Shown: piece by piece, positions 10,469-15,719 of the stretch
Position numbering within the stretch: position 1 is the first letter of the stretch
How the letters are laid out: each line of letters starts with the position of its first letter
Virus record (IMG/VR): IMGVR_UViG_2681813154_000004
DNA: 37,535 nucleotides
Reading direction: 5' to 3' (one strand)
DNA from: a virus
Lineage: Duplodnaviria > Heunggongvirae > Uroviricota > Caudoviricetes
Translations under genes and position numbers: made by a program
The notes under the pieces: generated by a model
The model's input: only the letters and a program-made list of their open reading frames with translations
What the model was told of the DNA's origin: nothing
Databases searched by the model: none

Positions 10469-10993
10469 TTATTGTTTAACCCATAATAATTCATTGACAT
10501 TGAATCCCAACTTTTGAGCGGTTCGCACATAGTCTGCTTTTACTTTATCTGGAATAGTTGGGGTCCTTGCCAGAATCCATAGGTATTCTCTGTTCGGACC
10601 ACTGACAAGAGCATACTTATACTCATCATCCAGTTTGATTACATTATAGCCACCATAGAAGGGGCCAAAAAACGAAACCTTCAATGCTGCAGTTTTAGTA
10701 TCTCCAGTAAAGTATGCTTTACCTTCGCTCTCGCTCCATTTATTTTTCGTTGGATCGTATCCACGGTTAAGTACACGAATCCCTCCGTCGTTCCGTTTTC
10801 CATAAGTAGCGCTGACCTGTTCCAGATCACGTTCGAACCGGTTCTCGAGGCGAGCTATTTCATACCATTTTCCGAGGTAGCGGTTGGCGTCAAAATTTGT
10901 AATCGGCTGCACACCTTTAGGTGGTGTCGGGGCCTTACATGCTATAAGAGTGAAAGAGAGTGCAATGCCAGTCAACACAGGCCATAACTTCAT
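10469..10993 (-). CDS. blc: Outer-membrane lipocalin lipoprotein, Blc-like
   Basis: Signal peptide plus lipobox (LIAC), YLGKWYEIARLENRFE and FFGPFYGGYNVI lipocalin motifs; divergent from E. coli Blc. Confidence 0.85.
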   Translation of the reverse strand: MKLWPVLTGIALSFTLIACKAPTPPKGVQPITNFDANRYLGKWYEIARLENRFERDLEQVSATYGKRNDGGIRVLNRGYDPTKNKWSESEGKAYFTGDTKTAALKVSFFGPFYGGYNVIKLDDEYKYALVSGPNREYLWILARTPTIPDKVKADYVRTAQKLGFNVNELLWVKQ

Positions 10994-11185
10994 AATAAAT
11001 CCTGTACTTTTGATAGTTGAGAGTAAGTATGAAAGATAGATGATTACGACCGATCACTTAAAGAACTTTCATACTATATTAGGAATAGTCCATAACAGAA
11101 AAATTGTCAGTGATGACGCCAGAAAGGCAATTTATTCCGTGCACTACACAGTTTATGTGTTAATGAATTAGTCAAGGGGGAGAAT

Positions 11186-12145
11186 ATGATAAAAAAACCT
11201 GTGATTGGAATCAGCGGTTGTTTGGCCGGTTCTGCTGTTCGTTTTGATGGTGGTCACAAAAGAGCTGACTTTTTAATGGACAAATTAGTGGAATGGGTAA
11301 CATTCAGACCAGTATGTCCGGAAATGGCTATAGGGCTGCCAGTTCCGCGTCCTGCTCTACGTCTTGTGCGCTCGACGCAAGGAAATATACGGATGTGTTT
11401 CAGCCACGACCAGAATGAGGATGTGACAGAGAGAATGACAGAGTTTAGTCGTTCTTATATGGACAAATTAAAGGATGTATCGGGGTTTGTGGTTTGTGCT
11501 AAATCTCCCAGCTGTGGCATGGAGCGCGTGCGTGTCTATGATGAAAATGGTAATCGAGGTCGTAAAGATGGAGTGGGACTATTTACGAGTACTTTGATGG
11601 AAAAGTTTTCCTGGCTACCGGTTGAAGAGGATGGGCGATTACATGATCCAGTGCTTCGTGAGAATTTTGTTGAAAGAGTTTTTGCTTTGCATGAGCTCAA
11701 TCACCTTTACAAGGAGAAATTATCAAGAAGAGAGTTATTAGCTTTTCATAGTCGTTATAAGCTTCAGTTGTTGGCGCATAGTCAGGCAGGCTATAAAGAT
11801 ATGGGACCATTTGTGGCTGCAATACACGAGTGGGCGGACCTTGAATCATACTTTGAGGTGTATCGTGATAAGCTGATGGCGATTCTCAGAAAACCTGCAT
11901 CACGTAAAAATCACACGAATGTGCTGATGCATATACAGGGGTATTTTAGTAACTACTTAAGTACACGCCAGCGTAAAGAGTTGAGCGAGGTTATACTTAA
12001 CTATCGTTCTGGCACATTACCTCTTCTTGCGCCGTTGACTCTGCTGAAGCATTATCTGGGTGAGTATCCTAATGATTACTTGCTTACACAGAATTACTTC
12101 GATCCCTATCCGGACGAACTGGCTCTAAGACTGATGGTAAATTAA
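11186..12145 (+). CDS. YbgA-like protein (DUF523/DUF1722 family)
   Basis: IGISGCLAGSAVRFDGGHK...PVCPE N-terminal motif typical of the family; strong GGGGGAG RBS. Confidence 0.7.
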   Translation: MIKKPVIGISGCLAGSAVRFDGGHKRADFLMDKLVEWVTFRPVCPEMAIGLPVPRPALRLVRSTQGNIRMCFSHDQNEDVTERMTEFSRSYMDKLKDVSGFVVCAKSPSCGMERVRVYDENGNRGRKDGVGLFTSTLMEKFSWLPVEEDGRLHDPVLRENFVERVFALHELNHLYKEKLSRRELLAFHSRYKLQLLAHSQAGYKDMGPFVAAIHEWADLESYFEVYRDKLMAILRKPASRKNHTNVLMHIQGYFSNYLSTRQRKELSEVILNYRSGTLPLLAPLTLLKHYLGEYPNDYLLTQNYFDPYPDELALRLMVN

Positions 12146-12496
12146 TTGTATGCGATATCATCCAAAAGGATGAGTTCCTGCATGCAGGATATTTACAATC
12201 GTAAAAACTACACTATGATACCCAGAGTGTCAGTTTGTATAAAAACTCTGTTTACGCTGAAGAAACAATTGAGATGCAACTTAAAGTTGGTAAACATGCC
12301 AGTCAAAATATATAATATTATGATTCCACGCAGCTATATATAATATAACAGATTGGTTTAATAATTTGTCTTTGTGAGTTAAATACATAATTTTATACTT
12401 GTGATGCAATGAAATTTTCCTTATTGTTGAACTTGCGAATATTGATTTTCCACCTATACTTACCTGGTGTAACCCCAATGATATCAGGTGGATAAT

Positions 12497-13228
12497 ATGC
12501 CATACATATGTTCTATCATTTTGGTGTTGAACTCGTTTGATGTCCGAATTGGTAAAGAAGATATTTTGTTTAAAAAAGGAAGTGCTGTTCTCATTGATTA
12601 CAATTTAAAAGATTTTTTTTCATCAAATATAGATCATGTAATGATCGTAGATGTTGAAGAGAAAACAGTTAATGATTTCTTTAAAAGCAACACACTCTCA
12701 CCTTTTTCTGTAAGAAGGTTTTATCCGGCATACTTGATGGTGGAATGTGAAGATTTTTCATTGTTAAAGAACTTGATTGCATGCTTGAATTGTGATGGCA
12801 GAACTGTGGATTTTGTTAGAAATCAAATATCACTTGCATGTCTTGCTATCTTATCTTCAGAGAAAATAGTGCAAAGTTTTTTATTTGGATGTCTTAATAG
12901 TTTAGGAAGTAAAGTTAAGGCTATTATTCACACGGATATATCTGCAGCATGGAGACTTTGTGATATATCTTCAAGACTGTATCTGAGTGAAAGTCTGTTA
13001 AAAAGAAAATTAAAGCACGAAGGCTTATCATTTAGTAAGTTAATTCTTGAAGAGCGAATGGTGATGGCGGAAAGGTTATTAAGCTACAATTTATATTCTG
13101 TTGGAAAAGTTGCTGAGATATGCGGTTATGAAAACACGTCATATTTTGTGAGTGTTTTCAGAAGATATTTTGGTGTTCCTCCCCATCAATATTCATCAAG
13201 ATTTTTTTTAGAAAAAGACATGATGTAA
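12497..13228 (+). CDS. AraC/XylS-family transcriptional regulator, AppY-like
   Basis: C-terminal AraC HTH (VGKVAEICGYENTSYFVSVFRRYFGVPPHQY); very AT-rich gene with AT-rich upstream region; ATG at 12497 after GGTG. Confidence 0.8.
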   Translation: MPYICSIILVLNSFDVRIGKEDILFKKGSAVLIDYNLKDFFSSNIDHVMIVDVEEKTVNDFFKSNTLSPFSVRRFYPAYLMVECEDFSLLKNLIACLNCDGRTVDFVRNQISLACLAILSSEKIVQSFLFGCLNSLGSKVKAIIHTDISAAWRLCDISSRLYLSESLLKRKLKHEGLSFSKLILEERMVMAERLLSYNLYSVGKVAEICGYENTSYFVSVFRRYFGVPPHQYSSRFFLEKDMM

Positions 13229-13289
13229 CGTGATGCGTTTTAATGATTTTGTAATTTTCGTATTTGATAATTGTATGATGCTTTCAGCT

Positions 13290-13320
13290 ACGCCAGAATA
13301 ATCGCTGGCGTTTTTCTTTT
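13290..13320 (+). terminator. Intrinsic terminator after the AraC-like gene
   Basis: ACGCCAG-AATAATCG-CTGGCGT followed by TTTTTCTTTT. Confidence 0.6.
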
Positions 13321-13416: not shown

Positions 13417-13632
13417 ATGAAATCTATGGATAAGTTAACAACGGGCATTGCCTACGGCACCTCCGCAGGCAGTGCTGGCTACTGGTTTTTACAGCTGCTC
13501 GATAAAGTCACGCCCTCACAGTGGGCAGCAATAGGTGTGCTGGGTAGCCTGGTATTTGGCCTGCTGACGTACCTGACAAACCTTTATTTCAAGATTAAAG
13601 AAGATAAGCGCAAGGCTGCGAGAGGTGAATAA
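13417..13632 (+). CDS. Pinholin, phage 21 S21-like, dual-start (MKSM)
   Basis: 71 aa; [26 protein letters not shown]...; GGAGGTGAGG RBS. Confidence 0.85.
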
Positions 13633-14129: not shown

Positions 14130-14569
14130 GTAGAGTAACCGCGATTATCTCCGCTCTGGTTATCAGCATCATCGTCTGCCTGTCATGGGCTGTTAATCAT
14201 TACCGTGATAACGCCATGACCTACAAAGAACAGCGCGACAAAGCCACATCCATCATCGCTGACATGCAGAAGCGTCAACATGATGTAGCTGAACTCGACG
14301 CCAGATACACAAAGGAGCTTGCTGATGCTAACGCGACTATCGAAAGTCTTCGTGCTGATGTTTCTGCTGGTCGTAAGTGGCTGCACGTCAAAGCAGTCTG
14401 TCCGGACAAGCATAAAACCACCGCCGCCTCCGGCGTGGATGATGCTTCCAGCCCCAGACTTACTGACACCGCTCAACGGGATTATTTCGTTCTCAGAGAG
14501 CGCATCGAAACCATAACTAACCAATTGAATGGCCTGCAAGAATATGTGAGATCACAGTGTTCATATTAG
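14126..14569 (+). CDS. Rz i-spanin
   Basis: N-terminal TM segment then coiled-coil; ATG overlaps the endolysin stop (ATGA). Confidence 0.8.
14325..14516 (+). CDS. Rz1 o-spanin lipoprotein, embedded in Rz in another frame
   Basis: Lipobox LVVSGC, proline-rich [18 protein letters not shown] 7 nt before the ATG at 14325. Confidence 0.8.
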
Positions 14570-14607
14570 AAAAGTCTTATCATAAGATTTTTGTATATGG
14601 ATGCATT

Positions 14608-14982
14608 ATGTCTCAATACGCTCACGTTGCTTTAATCGCTTATCATTTGGTGGCTGATAGCTCAATGACTCCTCGTGATGCATGGGATGCAGCTATCGCA
14701 GAGGTTACAGAAAGCGAATCGTCAAGAAAGAAGATATGCCCAAGGGCAACATTTCTCGCCCTGGCGGATAGCGGTTACCTGAAGAATGTAAAACCACTGC
14801 ATGGGGAGAAAAAAGGCGGTAAGTTGTACCAAAGGGCAATTGAAGTTGCGAATCTGATTCTTGATTTACCCGGAATCAGTAAAGCTGAATTGGTTGATAA
14901 AACTGGTTACAAAGACAGGCAAGGGTCTTATGACCTGATTCTCGCTCTGTATCATCATGAGCAACTCCAGCGATCGGAATAA
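14608..14982 (+). CDS. Hypothetical protein (125 aa)
   Basis: ORF 14557..14982; most likely start is the ATG at 14608 (MSQYAHVALIAYH...); no family recognised. Confidence 0.5.
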   Translation: MSQYAHVALIAYHLVADSSMTPRDAWDAAIAEVTESESSRKKICPRATFLALADSGYLKNVKPLHGEKKGGKLYQRAIEVANLILDLPGISKAELVDKTGYKDRQGSYDLILALYHHEQLQRSE

Positions 14983-15099
14983 TTATCCCAGCATCAGTGT
15001 CAAAAATAGGCAGTGATACGCTATTTTCCTGAAAATACTTTACTAACATTTTATGAGAATTATCCTAGTAATGTGTTTATTTAAAAGGAGTTTGGGTTT

Positions 15100-15303
15100 A
15101 TGAAAATTCTCTGGGTCATCAGTCTTTTGTGTAGTGCTATTGGATTTATTGAAGGAATCCTCGGGGTTTTCGGTGCTCAGAGTGCTCCACAACAGGCTGC
15201 AGGTGCAGCAATGGGAGTAGCATGGGCAGTTATTCCATATTGTATTTGTCGTGCTATCCAACAATTGCGCCCTCGAGAAGTCATTATTAAAAAGGAAGAA
15301 TGA
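15100..15303 (+). CDS. Small membrane protein (67 aa), moron-like unit
   Basis: AAGGAG RBS, two hydrophobic segments, AT-rich upstream region and its own downstream terminator. Confidence 0.55.
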   Translation: MKILWVISLLCSAIGFIEGILGVFGAQSAPQQAAGAAMGVAWAVIPYCICRAIQQLRPREVIIKKEE

Positions 15304-15334
15304 CCAGATCTTATCCGGTGTTTTTTCTGTCTAA

Positions 15335-15359
15335 GCCTCGCGTCGCGGGGCTTTTTATT
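15335..15359 (+). terminator. Intrinsic terminator after the small membrane protein gene
   Basis: GCCTCG-CGTCG-CGGGGC followed by TTTTTATT. Confidence 0.5.
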
Positions 15360-15368
15360 GGAGCCAGC

Positions 15369-15719
15369 ATGCCACCACGAACCCCAAAAGCCTGCCGTGT
15401 TCGCGGCTGCCGCCATACCACAACTGACCCGTCAGGCTATTGCGAAAGCCACAAAAGTGAAGGCTGGAAGCAATACAAGCCGGGCCAGTCCAGACACCAG
15501 CGCGGTTATGGTTCGAAATGGGATGTTATCCGTGAACGTGTGCTCAAGCGTGACAAAGGACTGTGTCAGTTATGTCTGCGTGGTGGTGTGGTACGTGAGG
15601 CGAAAACCGTTGACCACATCATCCCTAAAGCGCATGGCGGCACTGATGCCGACAGCAATCTGCAGAGCCTGTGCTGGCCGTGTCATAAGGCGAAGACGGC
15701 CCGTGAACGGTTGAAGTAA
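15369..15719 (+). CDS. HNH endonuclease (terminase-associated)
   Basis: Cys/His motifs CRVRGCRH...CQLC...VDHIIPKAHGG...CWPCH; ATG at 15369 after GGAG; directly upstream of terS. Confidence 0.85.
   Translation: MPPRTPKACRVRGCRHTTTDPSGYCESHKSEGWKQYKPGQSRHQRGYGSKWDVIRERVLKRDKGLCQLCLRGGVVREAKTVDHIIPKAHGGTDADSNLQSLCWPCHKAKTARERLK

Follow-up and report, generated by a model that had tools for sequence, protein, structure and literature searches.

Two genes lie between the spanin gene Rz and the HNH gene of a prophage of the class Caudoviricetes (IMG/VR record IMGVR_UViG_2681813154_000004), and the question is what they are and whether they belong to the phage core. The whole stretch of DNA that was analysed, 37,535 nucleotides (nt) of one strand, is called the window. 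An earlier note, made from the sequence alone, had described both genes as unrecognised and the second of them as a self-contained unit of promoter, small membrane protein gene and terminator, the hallmark of a moron. Comparison with related prophages demonstrates that two independent accessory elements occupy a variable slot reaching from the spanin gene to the HNH and terminase genes, near the cohesive-end site (cos). The moron assignment is well supported by sequence comparison for the second gene, which encodes a protein of 67 amino acids (aa) and appears to lie in a mobile promoter-gene-terminator cassette. It does not extend to the first, 124-aa gene, which is a separate accessory gene. 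The best overall explanation, which we regard as probable, though with a good deal of room for doubt, is a moron cassette with a protective protein expressed in the lysogen, accompanied by a separate DUF6979 accessory gene. The features of the slot, including the open reading frames (ORFs), are listed below.

14608..14982, + strand: ORF1, gene of the DUF6979 family, 124 aa and stop (ORF list, Pfam, PHROG)
15039..15044, + strand: candidate -35 hexamer TTTACT (conservation in homologous loci)
15061..15066, + strand: candidate -10 hexamer TATCCT, 16 nt past the -35 hexamer and 33 nt before the ATG (conservation in homologous loci)
15085..15090, + strand: Shine-Dalgarno sequence AAGGAG, 9 nt before the ATG of the 67-aa gene (read from the sequence)
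15100..15303, + strand: ORF2, predicted 67-aa inner-membrane protein with two transmembrane (TM) helices, member of phrog_12304 (ORF list, PHROG, hydropathy, model)
15333..15360, + strand: intrinsic terminator with the stem AAGCCTCGC / GCGGGGCTT, loop GTC and a T-run (scan and fold)

This part of the window matches, at 100% identity, the right end of Shigella phage SfI as well as Escherichia coli prophages, and the prophage of the window is of the SfI type. The genome of SfI ends with the lysis cassette and cos (PMC3636060), in the order Rz, gp63 (which is ORF1), an unannotated stretch containing ORF2, HNH and the genome end at cos. Among phages that have the HNH/TerS(P27)/TerL module in common, the contents of the slot between the spanin gene and HNH differ: phage 720R4 has nothing there, SKA5 has one unknown gene, 118970_sal3 has two genes, ST64B has Sb54 and Sb55, and HK97 has a KilA-N gene and one other. 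The megablast similarity to lambda-like phages with Rz and DUF6979 ends at window position 14934, and the similarity to phages with the HNH module begins at 15369, the HNH start codon, or at 15334 in ST64B. The HNH/TerS module was found in about 1100 of 5426 complete E. coli genomes; 249 of these module-bearing genomes carry the DUF6979 region and only 52 (52 of the 5426 searched) carry the 67-aa unit, always with at least 99% identity. With 249 and 52 carriers against about 1100 genomes with the module, neither ORF1 nor ORF2 is a core gene. The comparison with related phages that the earlier note had proposed has thus been made, and homologues are not present in all of them as core genes.

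A moron is understood here as an addition without a counterpart in close relatives, having its own promoter and terminator and a deviating GC content and being expressed from the repressed prophage; the definition, and the precedent of gp15 of phage HK97, are those of PMC3594210, after Juhala et al. 2000. The 67-aa unit is such an addition according to the slot comparison (52 genomes against about 1100). Its GC content is 40.5%, and that of the spacer upstream of it (14983-15099) is 30.8%, against 49.6% in Rz, 55.8% in HNH and 58.7% in TerS. The signals predicted for the unit were confirmed in part. The ORF at 15100..15303 is predicted to encode a two-TM protein by hydropathy and the helices of the AlphaFold model, its ribosome-binding site AAGGAG (15085-15090) is strong, as had been stated, and an intrinsic terminator follows it. 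The spacer had been called AT-rich and promoter-like. It is AT-rich, but its resemblance to a promoter is limited to a candidate below the threshold of the scan used.

The terminator consists of a hairpin at 15333-15353 with nine pairs, six of them G-C, and a T-run to about 15360, and it ends just before the HNH ribosome-binding site. A hairpin with a T-run stands 9-32 nt past the stop codon of the 67-aa gene in 87 of 92 homologous loci. The usual stem in these loci is AGCCTCGC/GCGGGGCT with loops that differ, and in some lineages (Ewingella, Kluyvera and the loci L071 and L073) it is replaced by a different G+C-rich hairpin. In an alignment of 22 terminator sequences, 87% of the cells pair; the unpaired ones are the replaced hairpins, which are out of register. 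A prophage of the Enterobacter type (L013) has no HNH gene, yet a homologous terminator follows its homologous 67-aa gene. Because it is kept in 87 of 92 loci and in the HNH-less prophage, the terminator travels with the 67-aa gene, and in this sense it is the gene's own, as claimed; the claim does not hold in the sense of exclusive ownership, since in ST64B the hairpin stands behind different cargo. A longer HNH frame, from the ATG at 15300, overlaps the stop of the 67-aa gene and crosses the terminator. The homology with HNH of other phages starts only at the ATG at 15369, which is preceded by a GGAG of its own, and for these reasons the short form is taken to be the gene.

The candidate promoter TTTACT-16-TATCCT matches 8 of the 12 consensus positions. 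Because this is under the scan threshold, the argument for it is made from conservation in homologous loci. An alignment of 60 distinct upstream regions consists of CTTTACTA, a variable stretch, TTATCCTAAT and then the ribosome-binding site, with conserved GGAGT, and the ATG; similarity among the upstream regions stops about 8-10 nt upstream of CTTTACTA, which holds the -35 hexamer. A -35 of the form TTTAC(T/A/C) is present in 48 of 58 distinct upstream regions, and in these 48 the -10 hexamer is TATCCT 36 times and TATCAT seven times. The 16-nt spacing between the hexamers is fixed in the 48 regions despite 28 distinct spacer sequences, and the majority frequency in them reaches 0.99 at the -35 hexamer and 0.94 at the -10 hexamer, as compared with 0.69 in the spacer and 0.44 far upstream. 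In by far the most loci, 30-33 nt separate the -10 hexamer from the ATG. At the orthologous position in Ewingella the scan reported TTGTTA-16-TAAAAT, a 9/12 match located 33 nt from the ATG. The retention of the hexamers points to constraint, because synonymous sites of the 67-aa gene are saturated between the compared lineages. On this good comparative evidence, we infer that 15039-15066 is a weak promoter of the sigma-70 type.

The mobility of the unit was followed in a wider set of loci. Collection scans yielded 97 further loci of the 67-aa gene, which were analysed by script along with the earlier ones, and 95 loci with at least 62% protein identity were used for counting. Lysis genes within three ORFs upstream and/or a terminase within three ORFs downstream were found in 74 of the 95. 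The nearby terminases are of three kinds that have no relationship to each other, namely HNH/P27 (20 loci), Nu1/A (25) and DUF1441/GpA (15). The lysis cassettes upstream contain several types of endolysin and spanin, and the 67-aa gene is flanked directly by small unknown genes that differ from locus to locus. The 67-aa gene, its terminator and the upstream hexamers co-travel among prophages whose lysis and packaging modules differ. DUF6979 stands upstream only in the E. coli/Shigella group with 99-100% identical 67-aa proteins, and ORF1 and ORF2 are therefore independent of each other.

More distant homologues of the 67-aa gene are found in further slots of the classic cargo type. A tape-measure-like gene directly precedes the homologue in Edwardsiella phage Edno5 and in an element of Morganella. 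In Tahibacter, too, the homologue follows a tape-measure gene, and in a prophage of Pantoea it stands directly before one. In prophages of Buttiauxella and Pseudomonas taiwanensis (L027 3582-4796, L028 and L029) it stands with a small lipoprotein gene between the lambda-like tail genes K and I. In Ewingella it is a lone gene beside icd in a gene-poor remnant, with promoter and terminator retained, and in Rouxiella it lies between the chromosomal genes lpxM and pykA.

These locations bear on the idea that the 67-aa protein is a lysis accessory, an antiholin or lysis-timing modulator made from the late transcript only, the upstream hexamers being no promoter. The gene does stand directly after lysis cassettes and on the same strand in at least 48 of the 95 loci, and the weak -10 and the scan result would fit such a role. 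Like the pinholin S21 of phage 21 (Phage_holin_2_1), encoded in the same operon at window position 13417-13632, the product is a small two-TM protein with a Gly/Ala-rich helix, and Ala and Gly are frequent in its helix 2, a trait of some holins and signal-anchor-release domains. But no homology to S21 was detected (hhalign probability 0.1%), and the Pfam holin families gave no match. The endolysins, spanins and holins nearby are of several unrelated types, so that there is no fixed partner. Some homologues belong to tail modules, as in Edno5, in Morganella and at the K-I position of Buttiauxella and Pseudomonas, and others are lone chromosomal copies (Ewingella and Rouxiella). The gene has a terminator of its own, and of the E. 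coli prophages that share the packaging module only about 5% possess it. Because the gene is not tied to one lysis cassette and occurs outside lysis modules, a lysis modulator is the less likely reading, and we consider it quite improbable. Membership in a holin or pinholin family was likewise dismissed, with neither a Pfam holin match nor a fixed endolysin pairing.

That the 67-aa ORF is a gene follows from several kinds of evidence. It is not annotated in either of the two public SfI records (NC_027339 / JX509734, 37695-37898), which might suggest that it, or ORF1 as well, is a chance reading frame, but for E. coli there is an NCBI annotation of the identical gene, as one for a hypothetical protein (WP_000699783.1). 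The protein is strongly conserved while the synonymous sites are saturated: the proportion of nonsynonymous differences (pN) is about 0.12 against a proportion of synonymous differences (pS) of about 0.66-1.0, which indicates purifying selection. Both ORFs match profiles in the Pfam and PHROG collections taken together, and from 45 to 1112 homologous clusters were found for the 67-aa protein. With selection and homology demonstrated in this way, the chance-frame reading is refuted and its remaining probability is negligible. The 67-aa gene had been called unrecognised. In fact its product belongs to phrog_12304 (E 2.1e-44, 67/67 positions), although this family is itself labelled as being of unknown function.

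The hydropathy of the protein indicates helices at residues of about 3-25 and 33-53, and the AlphaFold model has helices at 2-25 and 29-55 with a short uncharged loop between them and a predicted local distance difference test score (pLDDT) of 87.5. Positive charges are present at K2 near the N-terminus and at R51, R57, R59, K64 and K65 after helix 2, and nowhere else. According to the positive-inside rule, charges in these positions should place both ends in the cytoplasm, and the protein is probably a two-helix hairpin with N-in/C-in topology. A comparison with solved structures revealed no relationship. The Type IV secretion pilin family (PF18895) was rejected at 13.9 bits against a cut-off of 26.6; in the 67-aa family it gives weak matches only, in 3 of 44 members.

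A word-index search recovered 45 clusters of the protein across Enterobacterales, with the invariant stretch SAPQQAA-AA...A..VIPYC. A profile of the two-TM core, searched against 1.84 billion representatives of clusters formed at 50% identity, recovered 1112 clusters at E <= 0.001, 155 of them at E <= 1e-10. The matched genomes include Pseudomonas, Dokdonella, Tahibacter, Caulobacteraceae, Bacteroidota and Acidobacteriota. What is conserved is the two-helix core; some members have additional cytoplasmic zinc ribbons or coiled coils, and one has a Ser/Thr kinase. No Pfam model covers the core. The family, recognised by the motif SAPQ(Q/E)AA...(I/L)PY, comprises at least 1100 clusters at 50% identity in several phyla and is undescribed, and a literature search found no paper mentioning the family of either ORF1 or ORF2.

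Two further readings were considered. The 67-aa protein could be a small-protein regulator or fitness factor of the host membrane, acting on a transporter, a sensor kinase or the envelope machinery, with no role between phages. Many moron products change host physiology (PMC3594210), members with the two-TM core occur widely, in Pseudomonadota, Bacteroidota and Acidobacteriota, some of them outside prophages, and the fusions to zinc ribbons, coiled coils and a kinase would suit a regulator. However, most enterobacterial copies are situated in prophage moron slots, and no conserved host partner gene is found near the 67-aa gene in the loci examined. We regard the host-physiology reading as a serious alternative, unlikely as it is by itself. 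The other reading, to which only a small probability is given, is that the protein is a phage-borne minimal form of this large family and that the family is a new membrane-level anti-phage module of exclusion or abortive infection; if so, the members fused to zinc ribbons or to the kinase would represent the same effector coupled to a sensor.

Our preferred explanation for the 67-aa gene remains a moron that protects the lysogen. The cassette, at about 15030-15360, would comprise a weak promoter of the sigma-70 type, a strong ribosome-binding site, the gene of 67 codons and an intrinsic terminator. In the lysogen, transcription from its own promoter would yield a message of about 290 nt that stops at the cassette's own terminator. 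Because the cassette lies on the late-operon strand, the terminator would be read through during lytic growth by the Q-modified complex producing the late transcript; Q antitermination is the established basis for such read-through in lambdoid phages. The product would be a two-TM helical hairpin with the short uncharged SAPQQ loop in the periplasm and both ends in the cytoplasm. Its likely role would be that of an inner-membrane protein, expressed in the lysogen, which protects the host, and the mechanism we would prefer is superinfection exclusion, by which incoming phage DNA would be blocked at the cytoplasmic membrane, as by HK97 gp15 and P22 SieA.

HK97 gp15 is a superinfection exclusion protein encoded by a moron (Juhala et al. 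2000, Cumby et al. 2012, as reviewed in PMC3594210), and P22 SieA is a precedent for blocking the entry of phage DNA at the cytoplasmic membrane (PMC3594210). The 67-aa gene resembles the gp15 gene in being short, in encoding a small inner-membrane protein, in having its own ribosome-binding site and terminator and in being co-directional within a lambdoid late operon. Like gp15 it is missing from close relatives and has chromosomal homologues outside prophages, and in four lineages its homologues adjoin tape-measure genes, which is the slot of gp15. The two proteins have no sequence relationship, as hhalign gave a probability of 1.4% over 12 columns in the comparison with gp15 and the YebO family. 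Gp15 combines a single TM helix with a long charged tail, but the 67-aa protein has two TM helices, and its slot in the window lies between Rz and HNH and not in the tail operon. Exclusion is favoured because of the moron anatomy, the gp15 and SieA precedents, the recurrent placement by tape-measure and tail-tip genes and the pairing with a lipoprotein gene in some prophages. Exclusion at the step of DNA entry is accordingly offered as a tentative suggestion, one that we think may well prove mistaken.

The slot itself has a known counterpart. In lambdoid phages the region between Rz and cos is a hot spot for lysogenic-conversion genes. An example in the same position, past the spanin genes and next to cos, is bor of phage λ. 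In related lambda-like phages the slot contains DUF6979. The Bor protein is a lipoprotein of the outer membrane, and its gene lies on the opposite strand, whereas the 67-aa protein has neither a signal peptide nor a lipobox and is encoded on the late-operon strand.

Several points weigh against a self-contained cassette with an exclusion function. The strict sigma-70 consensus scan of the spacer found no promoter site on the + strand, and TATCCT is a poor -10, so that the promoter may be weak, dependent on an activator or no promoter. In ST64B (L018, about 2500-2536) the same hairpin stands directly before HNH, and the cargo there, Sb54/Sb55, is unrelated to the 67-aa gene. As the hairpin exists there without the gene, it may act as a junction common to the cassettes of the slot, and could belong to such a shared cassette or recombination junction. 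The homologues of Edno5, Morganella, Pantoea and Kluyvera overlap or directly adjoin the genes beside them, and are for this reason not self-contained. The conservation counts rest on sequences with common ancestry, which are not independent events. A literature search for transcript or protein data on lysogen expression of either gene found none. Nothing links the 67-aa protein to exclusion specifically, and the PADLOC models gave no convincing match to it (best E 0.026, PycC).

The PADLOC result counts also against a related possibility, namely that the protein is a membrane-damaging toxin, an effector of abortive infection or an addiction module. Toxins, exclusion factors and lysis modulators were the candidate functions that the earlier note had put forward. 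The protein is small and hydrophobic, and its small-xxx-small packing motifs could support oligomers. But the gene has a strong ribosome-binding site and a conserved candidate promoter, no antitoxin, antisense RNA or partner gene is visible, and orphan copies are kept in chromosomes. With strong expression signals and no visible partner gene, a toxin is the less likely reading, and we judge it very improbable.

Whatever the 67-aa protein does, the cassette is a well-delimited case of a well-known type of phage element, and its protein belongs to a large unclassified two-TM family. Morons are a route by which temperate phages carry genes of benefit to the host; to our knowledge, very few small membrane morons have a known function. 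At about 330 bp the cassette is cleanly bounded and easily cloned, its candidate promoter and terminator have been defined by comparison, and it is present in serotype-converting prophages of Shigella and E. coli and in many other Enterobacterales, while its gene is missing from the reference SfI annotation. A functional assignment would be the first for phrog_12304 and for the widespread unclassified two-TM domain. If the protein acts in neither exclusion, lysis timing nor toxicity, the cassette would still be a usual instance of the mosaic cargo carried between Rz and cos.

The first gene of the slot is of a different kind. The ORF at 14608-14982 exists as described, with a longer form from a GTG at 14557, but it encodes 124 aa and a stop and not 125 aa. 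It had been assigned to no recognisable family, which proved wrong: it is a full-length member of Pfam DUF6979 (PF22399; E 2.6e-28, 99.1 bits with a cut-off of 27, profile positions 1-126 of 127) and of phrog_5039 (E 8.2e-69, 123/124 positions), both labelled as families of unknown function, and NCBI names it in E. coli 'DUF6979 family protein'. The AlphaFold model has seven helices with a pLDDT of 89, and the product is, according to this model, a soluble all-alpha protein; comparison of the confident model with known folds gave no convincing match. The ratio of nonsynonymous to synonymous substitution rates (dN/dS) is about 0.2-0.3, which indicates purifying selection.

ORF1 starts 38 nt past the Rz stop codon in every context examined, that is, in the window, in the lambda-like phages 4A7 and mEp460, in Salmonella prophages with a Terminase_3 packaging module and in a degraded E. 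albertii prophage beside icd. The end of Rz and the Rz-DUF6979 spacer are nearly invariant, even where the DUF6979 protein is at just 67% identity. The consensus scan found no promoter before ORF1, and no convincing terminator was found after it (fold z = -1.5). Having no signals of its own, the gene is apparently co-transcribed with the lysis genes from the late promoter. It is interpreted most simply as a late-operon accessory gene tied to the type of Rz in the window.

Several minor observations concern the same gene. An AU-rich hairpin with a U-run (z = -2.6) is located at 14570-14592, past the stop codon of Rz and ahead of the DUF6979 gene, and is invariant in five contexts, including that with 67% DUF6979 identity; it may act in weak termination or in attenuation, or may just belong to the Rz module. 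The similarity to other DUF6979 alleles of E. coli at the nucleotide level stops at 14934, 48 nt before the stop codon, and the last 13 residues are LILALYHHEQLQR in the window and IVLILAQYGFLQR in the mEp460-type allele, which points to a mosaic joint inside the 3' end of the gene (14934-14982). In one of two sister prophages of the Enterobacter type (L013 1302-4035 vs L014 3379-4035), a DUF6979 gene of 44% identity takes the place that a pyocin-S/colicin-DNase gene has in the other. In both prophages this place is in the stretch from Q to the holin gene, immediately upstream of the same colicin/pyocin immunity gene.

Two other regions of the window are of note. A low-GC block at 10469-13311, between the Q region and the holin gene, has a GC fraction of 0.29-0.34 around 12200-13300 and contains genes for a lipocalin (minus strand), a YbgA-family protein and a protein with an AraC-type helix-turn-helix, with a terminator (13290-13311) at its end; phage SfI has tRNA-Asn and tRNA-Thr in its place. 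At the far end of the prophage, on the minus strand at 34054-36856, there are three consecutive ORFs of 506, 306 and 120 aa, in what we take to be the position where serotype-converting phages of the SfI type carry their O-antigen glucosylation (gtr) genes.

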